NCBI GenBank assembly: GCA_964384945.1 | Contig: CAYLMK010000005.1 | Coordinates: forward strand, 99,549-163,548 | Direction: 5' to 3' | Length of the DNA: 64,000 nt | Origin: an uncultured Thermodesulfobacteriota bacterium | Lineage (GTDB): Bacteria > Desulfobacterota > DSWW01 | Shown: in pieces, positions 12,894 through 21,951 of the stretch | Position numbering within the stretch: position 1 is the first letter of the stretch | How the letters are laid out: each line of letters starts with the position of its first letter | Position numbers and translations under genes: made by a program | Notes under the pieces: generated by a model | What the model was told of the DNA's origin: nothing | Seen by the model: only the letters and a program-made list of their open reading frames with translations | The model's database searches: none

Positions 12894-13574
12894 GTGATGA
12901 GACGGAACAAGTTTGGATTCGAGATCGGCCTGGGGATCCTTTGCATTGCACTCTACGGTATCTTCTCTTTCTGGTATGGCGGTTCGGGCGGGGGTAAGCT
13001 CTCTCGGGAAGAGGTTGACGCCTACCTATCGAAATTGGAGACAGATGCGGGTATTCCGGAGGAAGTGAAGAACGACTCGTTGGAGCGACTGCGCGCATGG
13101 GGTGAGGCGGATGACGGCGGGCCGGTGTACATGCTGAATCTGATGCGTGCCCGCGAACAACCCTATCTGTTCCCGGGTACGCCAGCGGATTTCCGCGGTA
13201 CGGCCGAAGAGGCGAACCGGATCTATGAAGATCACGCCATGCCGTTATTGGTCAAGCGCGGCGGCATTCCGGCGGTGTGGGGCAATGCCCAGGGGAAGAA
13301 TGTGATCGGCGGCGGGCCGGGACTGGATGAATGGTCCCGGCTGGGTTTCATCCGTTACCCGAAACGTCGCGCCTTCTTCGAGCTGCTCACGGACCCGGAA
13401 TATGTGAAGATCGGGCATTTCAAGTTCATGGGCATGGAATTTATCCTCGTACCCACATCGGCGGAAATGGCGATCCCGGACCTGCGGCCGATTGTTGGAG
13501 GGGCGCTCGCGATCCTCTTCCTCGGCCTCGGATGGTTCCGCTCGGTCATGCGCGCTCACGGCGCGGATTCCTGA
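12894..13574 (+). CDS. Membrane-anchored DUF1330-like (dimeric alpha/beta-barrel) protein
   Basis: N- and C-terminal transmembrane helices. The central region ('PLLVKRGGIPAVWG...LGFIRYPKRRAFFELLTDPEYVKIGHFKFMGMEFILV') resembles DUF1330. Confidence 0.35.
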   Translation: MMRRNKFGFEIGLGILCIALYGIFSFWYGGSGGGKLSREEVDAYLSKLETDAGIPEEVKNDSLERLRAWGEADDGGPVYMLNLMRAREQPYLFPGTPADFRGTAEEANRIYEDHAMPLLVKRGGIPAVWGNAQGKNVIGGGPGLDEWSRLGFIRYPKRRAFFELLTDPEYVKIGHFKFMGMEFILVPTSAEMAIPDLRPIVGGALAILFLGLGWFRSVMRAHGADS

Positions 13575-14809
13575 ACGGCAGGGCGGGCCTCCGCTCGACC
13601 GCCGGCCCCGTTTGCTCTGCCTTCCTTCACGAAAAAGAGGAGTACCGAAGCGGCCGCGGTCAGCCCGATCGACACGTAGAGAGGCACGAAGACCCCCACC
13701 CTGTCCCAGAGAAGCCCGGCGAGCAGCGAAGAAGGCAGGGCACAAAGGCCTACGACCATCTGAAACCCTCCGAGCGTGCTGGCCCGGTAGGCCTCGGGGG
13801 AGAGCTCGGAAACGAAGGCCCTTTGCACCGGCTCGATCGCGCCTTTGTGCAGCCCGTAGAAAACGAATGCCGCGGCCACGGCCTCGCGGCTTCGGAAGAA
13901 GGCCAGGCAGAGGCAGACCAGCCCCCAGAAGACGAACGAGGCCATGAGCACCGCCCGCCGGCCCAACTTGTCCGCCAGTCTGCCGAAGGGAAGCGAGGCC
14001 AGGGCGGCGACCGCCGTGAAAAGGAGGTAGAGCACGGGGAGGGACCCCGCCCGGTAGCCCCGTTCGCTCGCGTAGAGGAGAAGAAACGAGTAGCTGAAGG
14101 ACCCGAGGGCGAAGACCGCACTCAGGAAGAGGAACAACCTCAGGTTACGATCCAGCGCCGAGAGGGAAATCCCCCGGTAGAGCCGCGTTTCGGCGGGCTT
14201 GCCCTCCCGGATCATGAGAAATACCAGAATTGCGCCGACCCCGGAAGGCAGCGCCGCCAGCAGAAAGAGGGACCGATACCCCAGGGCACCGACCAGCGCG
14301 ATACAAACAAGGATACCGCAGACCGCCCCGAGGTTGTCCATGGCCCGCAGCACCCCGAAGTGCGCGCCCCGGTTCTGGCCGTTGGATACGTCCGCGACCA
14401 TCGCGTCCCTGGGCGCGCCACGCATCTTTCCGGACCGGTCCAGTACCCGGAAGGGGATCACCTGCTGCCAGGTTGCGGACAGGGCGTACCCGACCCTGGA
14501 CCCGGAGGCGAACAGGTAGCCAAGCCAGACGAAGACCTTGCGCCTTCGAAGCCGGTCGGACGCGTAGCCGGATGTCGCCTGCGAGAGGGAAACGAGCGCG
14601 TCTCCCAGGCCGTCCAGCAACCCGAGAACGGACATGCTGGCGCCGAGCCCGGCCGTAATGAACACGGGCCAGATCGGATAGATCATGTCCGAGCCCAGAT
14701 CGTTCAGGAAGGAGGCCAGGGCGAATACGGCGATCGTTCTCTTGGTCTGTTTTCGGTCCAAGGGAGATCCCGGGCGGAGGGGACGACGGGATTCGGATAT
14801 GCCCGCCAA
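13556..14809 (-). CDS. MFS transporter
   Basis: 417 aa, about 12 predicted transmembrane helices. MFS signature-like 'GYASDRLRRRKVF' and 'LADKLGRRAVLM' lie in the loops between TM2-3 and TM8-9. Confidence 0.85.
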   Translation of the reverse strand: MAGISESRRPLRPGSPLDRKQTKRTIAVFALASFLNDLGSDMIYPIWPVFITAGLGASMSVLGLLDGLGDALVSLSQATSGYASDRLRRRKVFVWLGYLFASGSRVGYALSATWQQVIPFRVLDRSGKMRGAPRDAMVADVSNGQNRGAHFGVLRAMDNLGAVCGILVCIALVGALGYRSLFLLAALPSGVGAILVFLMIREGKPAETRLYRGISLSALDRNLRLFLFLSAVFALGSFSYSFLLLYASERGYRAGSLPVLYLLFTAVAALASLPFGRLADKLGRRAVLMASFVFWGLVCLCLAFFRSREAVAAAFVFYGLHKGAIEPVQRAFVSELSPEAYRASTLGGFQMVVGLCALPSSLLAGLLWDRVGVFVPLYVSIGLTAAASVLLFFVKEGRANGAGGRAEARPAVQESAP

Positions 14810-15064
14810 GAGATGCGAACCGCTCAGCCGATGAATTTGTCCGATGGATCACTGCATTCGTATCGGATGTGCGGGCAGAAAACCACGCCCCACTGCCCTG
14901 TGCAGATTTGCACAGGAGCGGTTTCCTGTCAACGAAGATGATCTGTACCATCCAGTCTCCTCTCCGAGACCGCCTTTCGACCGCAATCGCGGTAGAAAGC
15001 GGTCGCCGGATCGGCGGCGTGTCATCACCCATGCGGGATCGCCGGGGCAGGGAATCGTGGCGGG

Positions 15065-16363
15065 CTACCAGGCGAGGGAAACCGAGGCGAAGATGCGGTC
15101 CTCCTCGGTGTCGTACCAGTCGTCGTTCGATCGGTTCCAGAGGTGCACGTAACCCAGGTCCGCGGACACCCCGGTCGGGAAGGCCCATTCGAAACTGCGG
15201 GAGAACTCGCCCCGCACTTCGAGTTCGTAACGTTCGTCCCGCCGTTCTTCCCCTGCCGGATCCTTCGGGGCTCCTTGGAGGTCCAGCGCCTCTCTGCCGA
15301 CGTACCGTCGCTCCTCGATCAGGCCCCTGGCGACCATGCGCACGCTTCGCGGCAGGAGCAGGGAGAACTGCACAAGCCCGCCCGGCCCCTCGTACCCGTA
15401 ATGATCGTCGAGGAAGTCCCTGTCCAGGCCGGGGATCGTTCCCTCGGCGAACCGGGGCGGGTCCAGGAAATTGGTCCGGTACGTGCCCTCGGCGAAGATG
15501 CCTGCCCGGGAGCCCAGGGCCTGGGCAGCCCTGGCTGCGAACAGGATCTGCCCGGCCGATTGGGATGACCGGTTTCCTGTGATCGTCGTGCCGGGCGGCG
15601 GCTCCTCCTCCGAACCCTGCCACCTCACACGCCCCCGACCGCTGCCGCCGGGCTGCCCCGGTCCGCTGCCGGGGCCTCCGCCACCGCCCCCCGGCCCCGG
15701 TGAATCCCCGGGCCCGGCCGCAGCGGCGGCCAGGAGTATGCCGGAGTCCCCCTGGCCGCCCGGCGTACCGGCAGCCGGTTCCTCGGGCACAGACTCCAGG
15801 TATCTTCTGAAATAGAGGGTGCCTCCCAGGCGGAGCGTGGTCTTCGTTCGAAAGGACTTGTTCGCGATAAGGTTACCGATCGACTCGACATAATCCAGAC
15901 CGTCCAAATCGGGGTAGGTTCCCCAGTAGCCCTGGATGCCTGGAATGATCAGCGTCTTCTTCAGCGGCCGCCAGTTCAGGTCCAGGCGGCCTCCGACCCG
16001 GTGGTGGTCCAGGTTGTTCGTATCGGACACGTGGAGGGTCCCGCCGTATCCGATCTCCGCCTCCAGCTCGTGGGCCTCGCCGACCTGGGCCTGGTAGAGT
16101 GCCGATGCCCTCTGCCAGAGGGCGTTCAGTTCGCTGTTGTCGTAGTACAGGTAACCGTTCAACCTGTACAGCATTCCGAAATCCTCTCCAAGGTCGGCCC
16201 GCACATGCCCGAAGGGCATGGCGACAAAGTCTTCCAGCGAGGAGGCGGTCAGGTAGAGATTCTCGGTCCACGTGCCCTCCAGGCCGACCTCCCCCTCTAC
16301 GGCCGCCCACGACCCGCCCGGGAAGAGCGCGAGGAGGAGTGCACAGAACAGGCAGGCCTTCAA
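15065..16363 (-). CDS. Outer-membrane beta-barrel protein with central Gly/Pro-rich low-complexity insert
   Basis: Probable TTG start giving 'MKACLFCALLLALFPGGSWA|AVEG', a signal peptide with an AxA cleavage site. The C-terminus ends '...ASVSLAW', an aromatic terminal residue typical of OMPs. Alternating amphipathic strands. The internal segment 'GPGDSPGPGGGGGGPGSGPGQPGGSGRG' is low-complexity. Confidence 0.6.
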   Translation of the reverse strand: MKACLFCALLLALFPGGSWAAVEGEVGLEGTWTENLYLTASSLEDFVAMPFGHVRADLGEDFGMLYRLNGYLYYDNSELNALWQRASALYQAQVGEAHELEAEIGYGGTLHVSDTNNLDHHRVGGRLDLNWRPLKKTLIIPGIQGYWGTYPDLDGLDYVESIGNLIANKSFRTKTTLRLGGTLYFRRYLESVPEEPAAGTPGGQGDSGILLAAAAAGPGDSPGPGGGGGGPGSGPGQPGGSGRGRVRWQGSEEEPPPGTTITGNRSSQSAGQILFAARAAQALGSRAGIFAEGTYRTNFLDPPRFAEGTIPGLDRDFLDDHYGYEGPGGLVQFSLLLPRSVRMVARGLIEERRYVGREALDLQGAPKDPAGEERRDERYELEVRGEFSRSFEWAFPTGVSADLGYVHLWNRSNDDWYDTEEDRIFASVSLAW

Positions 16364-16367
16364 GCCG

Positions 16368-16757
16368 TCACCTCCCGCCCCTGCCCGGACCGGCGCCCGG
16401 ACCGCCGCCGCCCGGCCCCTGGCGTCCCACGGACCCTCCGTCCGCCTCCTCCGGGCCGACTCCACCCCTCTGGTCGTCCTGACCCCTGTGCCGGCCTCGC
16501 TTCCGGTGCCGTTCCATCTGCCTATCGTCCAATCCGTCCCCATCCTCGTCCACGAAACGGTCCCCTTCCGCATTGCTTCCCATGTCCACGTAGCCCGTGT
16601 CGCTCCGGGCCTCGAGAAGATCAGGCTCGTCGATCGTGAACGGCGGGCCCTTCGGAGATATCGTCCGGGCGCTCGCGTCTGCGGGCCGCAGACAAACCAC
16701 GAGCCCCCAGAGCAAGACGGGGATCACGGCGTTCCGGGAATTGCACGGCCTCTTCAT
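16368..16757 (-). CDS. Small secreted acidic protein with thrombospondin type-3-like Ca-binding motif (paralog 2)
   Basis: Starts 'MKRPCNSRNAVIPVLLWGLVVCLRPADASA' (signal peptide). Contains 'RFVDEDGDGLDD' (DxDGDGxxD) and an Arg/Gly-rich tail. It is paralogous to the upstream gene. Confidence 0.55.
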   Translation of the reverse strand: MKRPCNSRNAVIPVLLWGLVVCLRPADASARTISPKGPPFTIDEPDLLEARSDTGYVDMGSNAEGDRFVDEDGDGLDDRQMERHRKRGRHRGQDDQRGGVGPEEADGGSVGRQGPGGGGPGAGPGRGGR

Positions 16758-16845
16758 GGTTTTCCTCCCGGGGCGGGGGCCGGGACGGTTCGGGGCCCGG
16801 GGCCGCCGAACCGTCCTTGTCGCCCGCATGCTCATCCCCATCCCT

Positions 16846-17313
16846 TCAACGGCCCGCCCGAGCCCCTTTGCCTCCGCGGGACGAAGACGTTTCGGATCGG
16901 CTTCCGCCTTCGGTCATCTGCTTCCCGTACTTGTTTCCGGTCCCGTCCCTCTTGTTCTTAACCCACTCCTCATCTTGACAGTTCGGAATCCCGTCTCCGT
17001 CATGGTCCGGGGCGAGATCGTTGATCCCGTCTCCGTTCTCATCGACGAAGCCGCGTCCCCGGGCGTACGGGGCATCTGCCCCCATGTCCCCGTAGCGGTG
17101 CTGTTCCTCGTTCCGGTGGCTCCACGCGTGCCGGTACGTGTATTCCGATTCGCTCTGCCCGCCCGCGGATTCCGAGGGCGTCCGCTGGAGCGCGGTCCCG
17201 GCTCCGGGAGCGCCTTCGCCGGTCTGTCCGGCGGATACGAACCCTTGGGACATGGGAATCGCCATGCAGCCCCCGATCGCCAACACGATGAGAATCTTCC
17301 GGTAGCCTTTCAT
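16846..17313 (-). CDS. Small secreted acidic protein with thrombospondin type-3-like Ca-binding repeats (paralog 1)
   Basis: Starts 'MKGYRKILIVLAIGGCMAIPMSQG' (signal peptide). 'GFVDENGDGINDLAPDHDGDGIPNCQDEEW' gives two DxDGDGxxD loops and an 'NCQD' like the TSP3 'DNCP'. An RBS (GGAGGGAAAACAAATG) is present, and the gene sits just downstream of a sigma-54 promoter. Confidence 0.6.
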   Translation of the reverse strand: MKGYRKILIVLAIGGCMAIPMSQGFVSAGQTGEGAPGAGTALQRTPSESAGGQSESEYTYRHAWSHRNEEQHRYGDMGADAPYARGRGFVDENGDGINDLAPDHDGDGIPNCQDEEWVKNKRDGTGNKYGKQMTEGGSRSETSSSRGGKGARAGR

Positions 17314-17365
17314 TTGTTTTCCCTCCCTGTATGCGGTTGCCGGATGCCTTTCGAATGGGGAGGGG

Positions 17366-17382
17366 AGCAAGGGGTGTGCCAA
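17366..17382 (-). promoter_or_regulatory. sigma-54 (-24/-12) promoter
   Basis: The minus strand reads 5'-TTGGCACACCCCTTGCT-3', matching TGGCAC-N5-TTGC with exact GG-N10-GC spacing. It lies ~40 nt upstream of the ATG at 17313 and directly downstream of a sigma-54 enhancer-binding protein gene. Confidence 0.65.
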
Positions 17383-17532
17383 GGAAAGCCGGAACCGGGG
17401 AGATCCTATATTCTCTCAATATATCAACTGGTTTCAGACGGAATCGGCCATCCGGTTCCGGGCTTTGTGACTCGAACCCGGTAATGCTGCCGGCCTTCTT
17501 CGACCATTCCTGCCTGTTCGCCGCGGGCGCCC

Positions 17533-18903
17533 TCATCGGCCGGCCACCCCGTATTTGTCCATCTTGTAACGGAGGTTCCGCTCGCTGATTCCCAGTAGCT
17601 CGGCGGCCCGGGTGCGAATGCCGCCTGTCTGTTCGAGGGCCCGGATGATCACGTTCTTCTCCAGGACCTCCACCATTTCCGCGAGCGTCGCCTTCCCCAG
17701 CTCGATTTCAGGGCCGGCCCCCGGGGCGCTGCAGTGCCGGATCGAGGGAGGCAGATCCTCCCGTTCCACCCGCGTGCCCCGACTCAGGACCACGGCCCTC
17801 TCGAGGGCGTTTTCCAGTTCCCGTACGTTTCCGGGGAAGGAATACCTCATCATGGAGTCGAGGGCTTCCGGCGACACGCCTTCGATCCGCTTCCTGTTCC
17901 TGTCCGCGTGCTTTGCGACGAAGTGTTCGACGAGCAGAGGGATGTCGCTGCGCCGCTCCCGGAGAGGCGGTATCGCGATGGAGACCACATTGAGCCGAAA
18001 ATAGAGATCCTGCCGAAACCTTCCCTGTTCGAGCATGCCCTCCAGGTCCTGATGGGTAGCCGCAATGATCCTCACATCCACGTGCACGGTCTCGTTGCCT
18101 CCCACGCGCTGGAAGGCCTGTTCCTGGATCACGTTGAGCAGCTTGACCTGCACGGGCAAGGGAAGGTCTCCCACCTCGTCGATGAAGAGGGTTCCGCCAT
18201 CCGCCTGCTCGAACCTCCCAATCCGCATGCGGTCCGCCCCGGTGAAGGCTCCCCTCTCGTGGCCGAACAACTCGCTCTCGAGCACCCCGGGGGACAGGGC
18301 CGCGCAGTTGGTCTCGACGAAAGGCCCTTCCCTCCGGTCGCTCGTCAGGTGGATCGCGTTCGCCAGCAGCCCCTTGCCGGTGCCGCTCTCGCCCCGAATC
18401 AGGACGGTCGCTCGGCTTTTGGCCACGCGGGCGGCCAGGTTCAGCGCCTCCTGCATCGTGCCGCTTTCGCCGATGATCTGGTCGAACCTGTAGCGCTCCG
18501 CCAGACGCTCCCTGAGTTCCAGGTTCTCACGGACCACTGCCTGGTGGGAGAGTGCCCTCTGCAGCAGCGCCTCGAGCTGCGCGAGGTCGATCGGCTTGAC
18601 GAGAAAATCCTCCGCACCCTCCTTCATCGCCTCTACGGCGGTCTCCACGGTCCCGTATGCAGACACGAGGATCACCCCGACGACCGGGTTGATCTCCTTG
18701 ACCGCCTTCAAGACCTGGACGCCGTCCGTATCCTTCATGCGGTAGTCCGTGACCACCACGTCGCAGATCCTCTCGCGGAAGATCTCCACGGCCCGGGCCC
18801 CGTCCGGGGCCGTCACCACGTGGTGGCCCTTCTTTCGGAGGAACCCGGCGATCATTTCCCGCTGGTTTTCTTCGTCGTCTACGACAAGAACCCTTCCCTT
18901 CAT
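17533..18903 (-). CDS. sigma-54-dependent two-component response regulator (NtrC family)
   Basis: Receiver domain ('VLVVDDE...', the phospho-Asp in 'VVTDYRMK'). AAA+ sigma-54 activation domain (Walker A 'GESGTGKG', the 'GAFTGA' loop, 'FRLNV...'). C-terminal Fis-type HTH ('RTRAAELLGISERNLRYKM'). Confidence 0.95.
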   Translation of the reverse strand: MKGRVLVVDDEENQREMIAGFLRKKGHHVVTAPDGARAVEIFRERICDVVVTDYRMKDTDGVQVLKAVKEINPVVGVILVSAYGTVETAVEAMKEGAEDFLVKPIDLAQLEALLQRALSHQAVVRENLELRERLAERYRFDQIIGESGTMQEALNLAARVAKSRATVLIRGESGTGKGLLANAIHLTSDRREGPFVETNCAALSPGVLESELFGHERGAFTGADRMRIGRFEQADGGTLFIDEVGDLPLPVQVKLLNVIQEQAFQRVGGNETVHVDVRIIAATHQDLEGMLEQGRFRQDLYFRLNVVSIAIPPLRERRSDIPLLVEHFVAKHADRNRKRIEGVSPEALDSMMRYSFPGNVRELENALERAVVLSRGTRVEREDLPPSIRHCSAPGAGPEIELGKATLAEMVEVLEKNVIIRALEQTGGIRTRAAELLGISERNLRYKMDKYGVAGR

Positions 18904-20990
18904 GCGTCCGGCCCTCCCTGGGGAATGCGCACCGTTGCCCGGGTGCCTTCCCCCTTGCGGCTCTCGATGCCCAGGAATCCTCCGTGCCGCTCGACAATCT
19001 TCTGGCTGATCGCGAGGCCCAGGCCCGTCCCTTTTTCCTTGGTCGTGAAATGCAGATCAAAGGCCTGCTCGAGCTCGGCCGGGGTCATTCCGCATCCCTG
19101 GTCTTCCACGAGGATGCATACCCATCCGTCCTGCCGCAACGCGGAGATCTTCACCTCACCCCCGCCCCCCATGGACTCGATCGCGTTCGAGACGAGGTTC
19201 AGGAGCACCTGCCTCATCTGTTTCACATCCATCACGGCCGTCAAGCCGTCAGGCGCTTCCGAGGAGAGTAAAATCCCCTTTCCGGCGGCCGGACCCGCCT
19301 GCTGGGTCATCACGGATTCGATGAGCGCGCCCACATCCTCCTCCCTCAAGGCGATCTTGGGCTCGCTTGCGAATCGAAGAAACTGGGTGATGATCCCGTC
19401 CAGGCGGGCGATCTCCGAACCGATGACGTCCAGGAAGCGGAGGTATTCCTCCCTGCCCGCTTGCGGCTCGAATTCCGCGCGGAGACGCTGCGCGGTCATT
19501 CCAATAGCGTTCAACGGGTTGCGCACCTCGTGGGCGACCGCTGCGGCGAGCCGGCCCAGGGCCGTGATCTTCTCCGCCCTCTGAATCTGCTCCCTCAGAC
19601 GCCGCTCCTCCGTCACGTCCCGCAGGATGACCACCGCGTACGGATCCTCCTCCCCGGGCACCGTCACCTTGGAGGCCGACAGGGTCAGGAAGCGCAGCCT
19701 TCCATCCATGCCCCGGATCTCGAGACCCTGCGCCGCGGGCGCGCCCCCTCGAAGGGTCTCCCGGACCAGGGGGTCGATCCCCTCCGGCACCAGTTCGATC
19801 CGCTCCCCGAACATGCTTTTCGATACATCGTTTGCCAGGGCCACCCTGCCGTCCTCGGCAACGACGAGCACGCCGTCCGCCATCCCGGAGAGCACGCTCC
19901 CGGAGAAGGTGGCCACCTCATCACGCGCCCGGACCGCGAGATTCATGTTCTGATAAATCACCACCGCATTCAGGGCGATCACCCCGAGCAGGGAAAGGAC
20001 AGCGATTGTGATCAGCATGCGCTGCAGGGACTTCCTCTCCAGGGCGCGGATCTCGTGCAGGTCAAAGGCGAGTCGAAGGAGCCCCAGCTTCTCTCCGTCG
20101 GGCGCGACCGTCCTGACCACCTCGAAAACGTCTTGCCCCTCGAAAGGCACCATCCGGGTGGCCTCTCCCCCCTCTTTCCACAGGGAGGCGAGAAAAGGAT
20201 CGTCGAGGATCCGTCTGGCCCCTGAGATGTTGGGCGTGGCGGTCAGAATCCCCCCTTCGTCCTGGATCATCACGTAGCTGACCCCGTGAACCCTGCCCAC
20301 GTCCCGGACCCAGCGGCCCAGGCCGAGCGTCTTGCGAAGTTCGAGGAGGACCGAGGCGTCCACGCTGCACAGGACGATCCCGCCTTCGCTCCTTCTGGCC
20401 GCGGCAGCGAAGCGGGCCTTTCCGTCCGTGGAGCGGTAGTGCAGGCCCGGGACCGATTCGCGTTCCTCTCCGGAGAAGAGGCCCGGAAAGAGTTCACGGT
20501 AGTCCGGTGGGGCCCGGTCCGGAAAGGACTCGTCGGGCCGGCTCGAGGCCTGTACACGGCCGTCCGCCCCCACGAGGTGGATGGCCTCGATGTCGTTCTC
20601 CAGGGCGACCCCGGCGAGGATTTCGGCGCCCGGTCTGCCTCCCTGTTCCATTCTCGCCACGGTCCTGGCCACGGTGAGAAGCCTGGTTTCAAGGTTCCAC
20701 TCGGCCTCATCCATGGCGCGCAGGGCGAAAACGGCCCCCTGCTCAAGCTGGCCGGCCGCGATCTTTCCCTTCTCCGCGATCAGATGGAGCATCGTCCGGC
20801 GGGCGTTGCGCACCTCGAACAGGGCGACCGCCACCATGAAGACAGCGAGGATCCCGCCGATCACGGCCAGATAGCCGGGCCGGATATACCAGAGATGCCT
20901 GCTCACCCGGCCCCCATCCGTGCAAGGCAAGACGGATCGTTTTCGATTCCCATGTTCTTGATTTCTACACGACCCGGGGGCGAAGGACAA
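18900..20990 (-). CDS. Sensor histidine kinase with periplasmic sensing domain, PAS, HisKA and HATPase domains
   Basis: Two transmembrane helices flank a periplasmic domain of ~300 aa, followed by PAS, then the H-box 'AHEVRNPLNAI', the N-box 'LLNLVSNAIE', and G-boxes 'DQGCGM' and 'GTGLGLAI'. The 4-nt overlap (ATGA) with the downstream regulator indicates an operon. The true start is probably an internal GTG/ATG near 'VSRHLWYIRPGYLAVIGG'. Confidence 0.9.
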   Translation of the reverse strand: MSFAPGSCRNQEHGNRKRSVLPCTDGGRVSRHLWYIRPGYLAVIGGILAVFMVAVALFEVRNARRTMLHLIAEKGKIAAGQLEQGAVFALRAMDEAEWNLETRLLTVARTVARMEQGGRPGAEILAGVALENDIEAIHLVGADGRVQASSRPDESFPDRAPPDYRELFPGLFSGEERESVPGLHYRSTDGKARFAAAARRSEGGIVLCSVDASVLLELRKTLGLGRWVRDVGRVHGVSYVMIQDEGGILTATPNISGARRILDDPFLASLWKEGGEATRMVPFEGQDVFEVVRTVAPDGEKLGLLRLAFDLHEIRALERKSLQRMLITIAVLSLLGVIALNAVVIYQNMNLAVRARDEVATFSGSVLSGMADGVLVVAEDGRVALANDVSKSMFGERIELVPEGIDPLVRETLRGGAPAAQGLEIRGMDGRLRFLTLSASKVTVPGEEDPYAVVILRDVTEERRLREQIQRAEKITALGRLAAAVAHEVRNPLNAIGMTAQRLRAEFEPQAGREEYLRFLDVIGSEIARLDGIITQFLRFASEPKIALREEDVGALIESVMTQQAGPAAGKGILLSSEAPDGLTAVMDVKQMRQVLLNLVSNAIESMGGGGEVKISALRQDGWVCILVEDQGCGMTPAELEQAFDLHFTTKEKGTGLGLAISQKIVERHGGFLGIESRKGEGTRATVRIPQGGPDA

Positions 20991-21411: not shown

Positions 21412-21951
21412 GGATCACCTCCTCTCGCAAGGGTTTCGAATGCCTGTCGAGCCGCCGCGGATCTCCGCCTCCGATCGACCCCGACGGCGGTCCGACCGTC
21501 CGTCGGAGCTGCTCGAAAAGCAAGTGTCGTGCCGGGGAGCGCTTCGTCTCCGCAAGGCTCCGGTTTTCCGATTGTATGCAAGGGTTGGACAGGACGCGGA
21601 AGGCGACCGGGGCGCTTGTCGCCGTCCCGAATCGGCAGGGCTGCCGATTCCCCCGGACGATTCTTGCCGGGTGCCGCACCCTTTTCCCTTGATTCGATCA
21701 TCCAAACGTGCGATCGTGCCTGACGACCCGCGAACCGCCGCGGCTCAAGCTGCGGGAAAATGAGGGGGCTTTGCTCGCCGCGACGACCGTCGGATCAAGC
21801 CGCGTCGGATGGCACGGCGTGAATCGCCCGTGCGATCGTGGAATTCGCCTATTGCACATCGAGTTCGTAAAGCGAACCGACTCAGAACCGCGAGGAACCG
21901 GCCATGTTTTGGACATTTAGAAAGGCCTCCTATCGGGCTTACCAGGCGGGC

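Follow-up and report, generated by a model that had tools for sequence, protein, structure and literature searches.

Tandem DxDxDG-loop mini-proteins and an outer-membrane barrel in a predicted sigma-54-controlled envelope cassette of uncultured bacteria

Introduction

The chemistry of the DxDxDG loop is already known, and so is the placement of a small periplasmic metal-binding protein under a sigma-54-dependent two-component system. Here we describe a locus in a 64,000-nucleotide (nt) stretch of DNA from an uncultured Thermodesulfobacteriota bacterium (contig CAYLMK010000005.1; the whole stretch is called the window below), in which two adjacent genes for small secreted proteins with DxDxDG loops, A and B, lie between a sigma-54 promoter and the gene of a predicted outer-membrane barrel. 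Together with a sensor kinase and a response regulator they form what we call the cassette. The closest regulatory parallel is ZraP of Enterobacteria, a small periplasmic protein under the control of the sigma-54 two-component system ZraS-ZraR. Like the Zra system, the cassette has a kinase and an NtrC-type regulator, a sigma-54 promoter and a small secreted protein with Gly-rich ends, and a ZraP/Spy-family LTXXQ protein lies beside the cassette in 17 related loci. Unlike ZraP, A and B do not have the LTXXQ/CpxP signature (the Pfam models LTXXQ and Metal_resist matched neither protein), their predicted ligands are oxygen only, not His or Cys, and the barrel partner has no counterpart in the Zra system. 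In Pseudomonas aeruginosa, the Ca2+/Fe2+-responsive two-component system CarSR (BqsSR) induces CarO and CarP, small periplasmic proteins that are thought to manage Ca2+; this system differs from the cassette by its OmpR-type regulator, its unrelated proteins and the absence of a barrel partner. The magnetosome proteins MamS and MamX (C-terminal domain) share a domain with a third gene found in related cassettes, but this gene is missing from the window, the matches fall far short of the equivalog cut-offs and magnetosome genes are absent.

DxDxDG loops have reportedly been described as Ca-binding in several classes, namely EF-hand, dockerin, the loop of glycoside hydrolase family 13 (GH13) and Excalibur, by Rigden and Galperin in 2004. 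The proteins studied here share with these loops the invariant ligand pattern 1, 3, 5, 6(G), 9, 12, and their best sub-threshold matches in the PDB are such loops; they differ in having neither predicted flanking helices nor Glu at position 12, and the tandem-loop unit and its operon context are new. Thrombospondin type-3 (TSP3) repeats, including the OmpA-linked ones of 5wtl, are similar in their consecutive Asp-rich DxDxDG loops, their little secondary structure and an expected Ca2+-centred fold, and in some units of the present family a Cys follows the second loop (IPNCQD) or each loop contains one. Unlike TSP3, the family has a distinct module of 39 amino acids (aa), F-V-D-E-N-G-D-G...D-x-D-G-D-G-I-P-N-G-Q-D-P-D-Y, and occurs as stand-alone secreted proteins of 100-260 aa with basic tails, not as linkers of large proteins.

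In the type 11 secretion system (T11SS), described from Proteobacteria, the cargo has a C-terminal eight-stranded barrel domain (PMC12282271). The cassette resembles the Slam/T11SS (DUF560) arrangement in that an outer-membrane barrel gene lies beside small secreted partners and three homologues of the barrel gave weak SlipAM matches; the barrel of the window differs by having no such match, no N-terminal periplasmic domain and about 16 predicted strands. As far as curated libraries and the full-text literature show, the 39-aa tandem-loop unit, the two-type mini-protein tandem, the dedicated barrel family and their cassette in several uncultured phyla are new. They define a sizeable protein family (at least 704 clusters at 50% identity) for which there is no curated model, and a tightly conserved, sigma-54-regulated operon in which this loop family is joined to an outer-membrane barrel that has not been characterised, in phyla for which metagenomes are nearly the sole source.

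Results

Judged from its sequence, the cassette is a five-gene unit of kinase, activator, A, B and barrel with a sigma-54 promoter, and its parts are as follows.

18900-20906, minus strand: sensor histidine kinase with a transmembrane segment, a periplasmic domain of ~265 aa, a second transmembrane segment, and PAS, HisKA and HATPase domains (Pfam)
17533-18903, minus strand: NtrC-type sigma-54-dependent response regulator (receiver, AAA+, Fis-type helix-turn-helix), overlapping the kinase stop by 4 nt
17366-17381, minus strand: sigma-54 (-24/-12) promoter TGGCACACCCCTTGCT, exact consensus TGGCAC-N5-TTGCT, 53 nt before the ATG of gene A
16846-17313, minus strand: gene A, secreted mini-protein of 155 aa, ATG start 8 nt after a GGGAGGG Shine-Dalgarno sequence
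16963-17058, minus strand: double DxDxDG unit of A, GRGFVDENGDGINDLAPDHDGDGIPNCQDEEW (from the translation)
16368-16757, minus strand: gene B, secreted mini-protein of 129 aa, paralogue of A (open reading frame [ORF] and alignment of B orthologues)
16524-16556, minus strand: single DxDxDG loop of B, FVDEDGDGLDD (from the translation), invariant in 10 of 10 B homologues
15065-16363, minus strand: barrel gene, 432 aa with signal peptide, TTG start 4 nt after the stop of B, Shine-Dalgarno sequence GGGAGGTGA

A first-pass annotation of the window had described A and B as adjacent tandem paralogues, both secreted, with a common core, a second loop in A, an acidic motif region and Arg/Gly-rich tails, and all of these features were borne out. 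Both genes lie on the minus strand at the positions listed, and both proteins begin with a signal-peptide pattern (basic-hydrophobic-AxA) that can be read from the sequence. The common core is GRGFVDENGDGIND in A and GDRFVDEDGDGLDD in B, and the second loop of A is DHDGDGIPNCQDEEW. In A, the signal peptide spans about aa 1-28, and the protein further contains a YxYRxxWxHRN plus YGDMG segment, a single double-loop unit, the motif DGTG and a basic tail rich in Gly/Arg/Lys; in B, the loop is followed by an Arg/His/Lys-rich stretch and then by the invariant tail GAGPGRGGR. The loop segment of A has a net charge of -7. The C-terminal ends are Gly/Arg-rich and positive, with +3 over the final 7 residues in A and over the final 19 in B. 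Mature A contains one Cys; mature B, a low-complexity chain of 99 aa, contains none. A and B were aligned by BLASTP with an E value of 3e-5, and comparison of the ortholog alignments (27 A, 10 B) by hhalign gave a probability of 95.3% and an E value of 2.3e-8 over 105 columns, with a match that reaches upstream of the loop (YGDMG in A, YVDMG in B). These alignments identify the two proteins as true paralogues, and B has lost the second loop and gained the Arg/His/Lys-rich segment. In the A orthologues, a segment Y-x-Y-R-N-T-W-x-H-R-N ... Y-G-x-M-G-E is conserved upstream of the loops (residues ~57-77; 17083-17145, minus strand); it is absent from the multi-repeat relatives, and its YGDMG part is the one that aligns with B. 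The sequence IGGC at residues 13-16 of A was considered as a lipoprotein signal and rejected, since the Cys is not conserved among the orthologues.

The metagenome contig L004 carries regulator, A, B and barrel in the same order and with identical gene lengths. This locus is 82-86% identical to the window, and its ortholog pair of A and B is 73-78% identical. The ratio of nonsynonymous to synonymous substitutions (dN/dS) between window and ortholog was 0.33 for A, 0.60 for B and 0.24 for the barrel gene, values that indicate that A and B are conserved, real genes under purifying selection. Translated in six frames, the window contained the pattern DxDxDGxx[DEN] (D or N at position 3) only three times, and all three occurrences were inside A and B.

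Relatives of A were searched in two ways: a word-indexed search returned 390 of them, and an exhaustive HMMER search over clusters at 50% identity found at least 704 of them (E ≤ 1e-3), with 298 remaining at E ≤ 1e-10. Nearly all members have 100-260 aa, with one to four copies of a unit of ~39 aa and a basic Gly-rich tail at the end; a few have 8-12 units. A hydrophobic run at the N terminus is present in 231 of 254 members. The consensus of the unit, xxGFVDENGDGINDNAPDxDGDGIPNGQDxDYV, has a net charge of about -9, whereas the C-terminal 25 residues have a mean charge of +3.3, with a positive value in 93% of the members. In an alignment of 99 non-redundant units, D6, [ND]8, D10, G11, D14, D18, D20, D22, G23, N26, D29 and D31 were invariant or nearly so, and columns 6, 8, 10, 11, 14, 18, 20, 22, 23, 26 and 29 were D, N or G in 97-100% of the units. 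These columns correspond to positions 1, 3, 5, 6(G) and 9 (and 12, 14) of two back-to-back DxDxDG loops. Thus, conservation falls on the ligand positions of both loops, as would be expected of loops that work as cation sites. Conserved loops of the DxDxDG type (D-x-[DN]-x-D-G, acidic or amide residues at 9 and 12) are present twice in A and once in B. A Cys occurs at column 27 in 22 of the 99 units and at column 13 in 5. That stand-alone proteins of this kind are poorly described, as the first-pass annotation had stated, agrees with the libraries: neither Pfam nor NCBIfam has a model for A, B or the relatives scanned, and the family motif strings had no match in the full-text literature. A precomputed Pfam tag on one relative (PF27309 on P0052) was a faint MJ0753_N match and was dismissed as irrelevant.

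The profile of the 99 units was compared with the PDB, and all hits were below threshold: EF loops of calmodulin (E 0.12), the loop of a GH13 glucosidase, teneurin, OmpA-TSP3 5wtl (E 0.33) and dockerin. At this sub-threshold level, the solved proteins that resemble the unit are all known Ca2+ sites. The EF-hand models of Pfam did not match A or B, and EF-hand_5 gave an E value of 0.49 on a relative. AlphaFold modelling had been named in the first-pass annotation as a check on a TSP3 or EF-hand fold; it was run on A (with 27 orthologues) and gave a model of too low confidence to bear on either fold. The model had a predicted local distance difference test (pLDDT) value of 46.7 and was mostly disordered; over the unit, pLDDT was ~62 with no secondary structure, no helices flanked the loops, and Foldseek returned zero matches for the model. 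The model is compatible with a chain that becomes ordered only around a metal, a compatibility that proves nothing. Going by sequence, a fair description of the unit is that of a new tandem-loop unit of the general DxDxDG class that is "TSP3-like" at the motif level only.

The alignment of A was used to scan species-representative genomes, which gave 80 loci, all of them in metagenome-assembled genomes (MAGs); contigs from exact look-ups brought the set to 85 loci. The MAGs are labelled as Aminicenantes/Saccharicenans, other Acidobacteriota, KSB1, Calditrichaeota, Chlorobiaceae, Ignavibacteria, Zixibacteria, Marinimicrobia, Zhuqueibacterota and Chrysiogenales. Since the best match among the scanned species representatives was 46% identical, the window's own lineage is not represented there. 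An iterated hidden Markov model (HMM) of the barrel found a homologue in 72 of the 85 loci, almost always directly downstream and on the same strand, and a sigma-54 activator was present in 55; as a rule, a kinase and an NtrC-type regulator adjoin the small genes as a pair. A near-consensus sigma-54 promoter (at least 10 of 11 positions) was located at most 600 nt upstream of 41 of 92 family genes, compared with 0.018 per 600 nt as background; in the 2.7 Mb covered, half of the sites of this quality are among these 41. For the reciprocal scan, an alignment of close barrel homologues was used, which gave 46 metagenome loci, 41 of them with upstream sequence. In 40 of these 41, the barrel gene is directly preceded on the same strand by small ORFs with an F[VI]DxDGDGxxD loop, between one and three in number. 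The position between a sigma-54 promoter and an outer-membrane protein, as well as the co-occurrence with the latter that had been suggested as a check, is therefore confirmed in both directions, with the exact promoter upstream of A and the AlphaFold beta-barrel downstream of B. This synteny argues very strongly for a functional link of A and B to the sigma-54 promoter and the barrel.

In 22 of the 40 loci, the barrel gene is preceded by a tandem of two types. Type 1 has FVDxDGDG[IV]CDNF, DGTG repeats, CDGTGPKG and a basic tail and takes a position like that of A; type 2, with DRF[IV]DxDGDGICDxRxxGLGFRRG and likewise a basic tail, is B-like and is matched by the B HMM. B-like proteins stand directly before the barrel gene in many metagenome loci. 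The presence of the tandem in the barrel-anchored loci marks the architecture of tandem paralogues as itself ancient and conserved, and B is not a decaying copy but the member placed against the barrel. The in-frame start of the barrel gene overlaps the stop of the small gene by 4 nt in 32 of 109 loci and by 1 nt in 11 (43/109 together); in the window, the two genes are separated by 4 nt. This close or overlapping junction suggests translational coupling and a fixed production ratio. In loci L113-L136, the type-1 mini-proteins (for example, L125:2564-2980 and L130:2520-2939) have a single FVDxDGDG[IV]CDNF loop, several (P)KDGTG(Y/N)G repeats and CDGTGPKG. Their DGTGP motif is presumably like the N terminus of DUF5320; Pfam gave no match, and we take the likeness as a lead only.

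The 432-aa protein had no sequence match in Pfam, NCBIfam or the PDB, and a profile of the barrel family found nothing significant in the PDB. AlphaFold predicted a barrel of ~16 strands (pLDDT mostly 70-88 in the barrel) that ends with a C-terminal Trp (...SVSLAW). With the model, Foldseek retrieved outer-membrane barrels only, all with poor template-modelling scores: OmpG, MtrB and OccD (E about 1e-4, score about 0.2), TonB-dependent receptors, BamA and AlgE. The protein thus has the general features of an outer-membrane beta-barrel, that is, a signal peptide, closing strands and an aromatic C terminus, and the model places it among the outer-membrane barrels, though in none of their described families. 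The Pfam model SlipAM (Slam) was weakly matched by three of 26 diverse homologues of the barrel: 22.6 bits for L051:10662-11825, 19.8 bits for L008:10241-11416 and 18.8 bits for L042:13530-14651, with a cut-off of 22. The match of L008 was aligned to the end of the model, and all three loci are of the KSB1 type. The barrel of the window itself did not match SlipAM (DUF560). Between two of its strands, the barrel contains a disordered Gly/Pro-rich insert of ~80 aa (aa 193-270; 15554-15787, minus strand), and homologues such as that of L070 have Pro-rich inserts at the equivalent place.

Downstream of the barrel gene, 45 of the 85 loci have a third gene for a secreted protein of ~150 aa with a basic Gly/Arg tail (for example, L070:11602-12048, plus strand). 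Its motifs are HFYNVD..EG.V, VE..P.WFF and LRD..GFP.W. The third gene had no match in Pfam or the PDB and was not found in the window; in NCBIfam it matched MamS (E 4.8e-8) with 33 bits, compared with a cut-off of 200, and MamX with an E value of 6.7e-4. Scores so far below the cut-off point to a shared domain, not to orthology. In 17-18 loci, many of them labelled Aminicenantes or Acidobacteriota, the divergent genes upstream of the cassette encode an extracytoplasmic function (ECF) sigma factor, a zf-HC2 anti-sigma factor, an LTXXQ/Metal_resist (Spy/ZraP-like) protein and the efflux pair MacA/MacB. This envelope-stress neighbourhood (for example, L069:2891-3496, L038:1077-1532 and L049:4599-5843) is confined to that group of loci. 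MacB together with a LolA-like protein was found in a few other loci, including two from KSB1, and occasional neighbours are DUF2202, cytochrome-c-like proteins and fragments of a cation diffusion facilitator (CDF)-type metal transporter.

The exact sigma-54 promoter and the adjacent activator gene are what is expected of a sigma-54 operon under a two-component enhancer-binding protein. The promoter is kept in L004 as TGGCACGCCGCTTGCT, and neither a sigma-70-like promoter nor an intrinsic terminator was found in 14500-17800. The regulator matched the Pfam models Sigma54_activat (1.7e-70), Response_reg (1.5e-27) and HTH_8 (3.5e-15), and the kinase matched HATPase_c (2.8e-27), HisKA (7.8e-12) and PAS_4 (2.8e-6); a match of the kinase to sCache_3_2 was weak (23.9 bits, below the cut-off of 28.4). 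The ORF of the kinase extends to 20990, and the public gene call starts at the GTG at 20906.

Discussion

From the conserved ligand positions and the operon we infer an inducible envelope module in which disordered mini-proteins that bind cations of the Ca2+ type work with a dedicated outer-membrane barrel, a tentative reading to which we give somewhat less than an even chance. A and B would be Sec-exported, largely disordered paralogues, each with an acidic cation-binding unit and a basic Gly/Arg tail, and A, B and barrel would be expressed as one operon from the sigma-54 promoter, switched on by the adjacent kinase and the NtrC-type regulator. The kinase would sense a signal in the envelope, upon which mini-proteins and barrel are made, and in the periplasm, or at the outer membrane's inner face, the loops would take up a divalent cation of the hard type, with Ca2+ as the most probable one. 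A physical contact of B with the barrel is probable; the gap of 4 nt between the genes in the window and the overlaps in many relatives suggest such a partnership. Cations on their way through the barrel could be captured, buffered or handed over by the module, with possible feedback on the kinase of the kind that ZraP exerts on ZraS. The outcome would be an inducible device for cation handling or stabilisation in the envelope, with a logic like that of ZraP/ZraSR. If the loops bind Ca2+, the cassette would be a compact, repeat-based bacterial module for calcium or other hard cations with a clear genetic switch and would offer an entry point to the management of envelope cations in uncultured anaerobes, and minimal metal-binding units of 39 aa may become available for protein engineering. 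Since the cassette is small (five genes) and includes its own regulator, it can be tested in a heterologous host.

Several observations weigh against such a cation-binding module. A has no confident fold in AlphaFold and its model retrieved nothing with Foldseek, and no cation-binding family was matched significantly in Pfam, NCBIfam or the PDB. B carries one loop only and is under weaker constraint (dN/dS 0.60). The periplasmic domain of the kinase is weakly Cache-like, and for Cache domains small organic ligands are more common than metals. Nor does any cation transporter of the inner membrane consistently accompany the cassette. Finally, the resemblance of the frequent third gene to the MamS/MamX magnetosome domain and the Cys in the loop (GDGICD) of many relatives, together with their CDGTGPKG motif, could point to the handling of another metal or of a mineral.

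That A and B are spurious ORFs of a GC-rich genome, or their motif a chance product, has practically no probability left: the window has many long overlapping ORFs on both strands, but those on the opposite strand are the usual artefact of a genome with 63.7% GC, and A and B have orthologues of equal length with dN/dS below 1, hundreds of homologues across phyla, Shine-Dalgarno sequences, the sigma-54 promoter and conserved synteny. Conservation has already refuted this explanation. The first-pass annotation had called the loops TSP3-like and spoken of mini-TSP3 proteins; taken literally, A and B would be bona fide bacterial TSP3 repeat proteins with a role in extracellular, Ca-dependent adhesion or matrix. 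The motif is indeed similar (DxDxDGIPNCQD compared with DxDxDGxxDxxDNCP), 5wtl is among the sub-threshold hits of the unit profile, and a relative gave weak NCBIfam echoes of the TSP3 proteins MtsD (throspo3_MtsD, E 0.011) and CglD. However, the Pfam model TSP_3 (PF02412) matched neither A nor B at E ≤ 1, nor the relatives with 8-12 repeats; the best score on any relative was 9.6 bits (E 0.97), compared with a cut-off of 25. No thrombospondin or COMP chain was retrieved from the PDB with A or a 12-repeat relative of 847 aa (phmmer) or with the 99-unit profile, and the Cys framework of TSP3 (conserved Cys pairs) is absent from A and B and not conserved in the family unit. EF-hand loops match the unit as well as or better than 5wtl, the sole TSP3 structure found. 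Since the DxDxDG loop is common to EF-hands, dockerins, GH13 glucosidases and TSP3, the resemblance of A and B to TSP3 is generic. Membership in the TSP3 family is thus disfavoured already by the failed HMM test, and we regard it as very improbable.

The barrel might instead be a dedicated outer-membrane exporter, like Slam/T11SS or CsgG of the curli system, with the mini-proteins as its cargo and the basic Gly/Arg tail as a tag; the cargo would end up at the surface or outside the cell as a Ca2+-cross-linked matrix, an adhesin or material that interacts with minerals. The strict adjacency of small gene and barrel gene with their often overlapping stop and start codons would fit, and so would the basic Gly/Arg/Lys tail shared by A-type, B-type and MamS-like proteins (+3.3 over the last 25 aa, positive in 93% of the family), the disorder, which suits threading through a narrow barrel, the weak SlipAM matches in 3 of 26 homologues (22.6 for L051 at a cut-off of 22) and the fact that cargo genes beside the outer-membrane component are typical of T11SS (PMC12282271). 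Yet the barrel of the window has no SlipAM match, the profile of its family finds nothing in the PDB and Foldseek yields generic barrels only; even the SlipAM matches may be a generic signal of C-terminal barrel strands, as BBP2_2 matches the same stretch. Moreover, A and B have no C-terminal eight-stranded barrel, A being predicted as disordered without beta structure and mature B being a low-complexity chain of 99 aa, and the host phyla are not Proteobacteria. Taken together, we consider export unlikely. If the barrel does export the mini-proteins, Slam-like or other single-component secretion would extend beyond Proteobacteria. In its widest form, which is equally doubtful, the cassette would be a previously unrecognised envelope system across MAGs of Aminicenantes/Acidobacteriota, KSB1, Calditrichaeota, Chlorobiaceae, Ignavibacteria, Zixibacteria and Marinimicrobia, with the barrel as a new, distantly Slam-like translocon or docking site outside Proteobacteria that exports or displays disordered, Ca2+-folding mini-proteins via their basic tails, for example, for a cation-cross-linked surface layer or the control of mineral precipitation. 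A different chemistry, in which loops and tails handle Fe, Mn, other hard cations or a mineral surface or control nucleation, or in which the mini-proteins are disordered periplasmic stress chaperones or kinase modulators of the ZraP/Spy kind that bind cations only secondarily, is not a probable explanation either. It is suggested by the third gene with its matches to MamS (E 4.8e-8) and MamX (E 6.7e-4) in 45 of 85 loci, by Cys-bearing loops and CDGTGPKG motifs in many relatives, by DUF2202, cytochrome-c-like proteins and CDF-type transporter fragments as occasional neighbours, by the LTXXQ/Metal_resist protein and ECF sigma factor that adjoin the cassette in 17-18 loci, and by the parallel with ZraP. 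But a MamS-like gene is missing from the window, there is at most one Cys in mature A and B, a score of 33 bits for MamS compared with a cut-off of 200 speaks for a shared domain, the LTXXQ motif does not occur in A or B and the neighbours related to metals are confined to certain lineages; DxDxDG loops with oxygen ligands throughout are classic Ca2+ sites.

Additional features of the locus

Two non-coding elements accompany the genes of the cassette.

17468-17532, minus strand: conserved non-coding block directly after the regulator stop, near-invariant compared with L004
16783-16816, minus strand: GC-rich hairpin GGACGGTTCGG...CCGAACCGTCC in the 88-nt spacer between A and B, stem of 11+4 bp, no U-tract (minimum free energy and centroid folds)

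While the promoter-proximal sequence diverges between the window and L004, the block after the regulator is kept, and it is a candidate for the upstream region bound by the activator. The 5' leader at 17314-17345 is also near-invariant compared with L004. A 10-bp inverted repeat, CCGGAACCGG/CCGGTTCCGG, flanks an AT-rich stretch upstream of the promoter; it was rejected as an activator site, since it is not conserved in L004. The hairpin between A and B had a z-score of -1.2 compared with shuffled sequences, which is not significant, and L004 keeps the stem with a shorter loop; it is therefore listed only as a possible mRNA-stabilising or attenuating element that might set the ratio of A to B/barrel expression. 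Scans of the window for Rfam families and tRNAs were empty. A second sigma-54-like site, CGGCACGACACTTGCT (21519-21534, minus strand), with one mismatch, is located ~610 nt upstream of the kinase start inside another called gene; chance alone would produce ~0.9 sites of this kind in the window, so a function is improbable. On the other side of the cassette, a gene for a major facilitator superfamily transporter (13556-14809, minus strand) follows the barrel gene on the same strand after a gap of 255 nt; it is not conserved in L004 and therefore probably lies outside the cassette.

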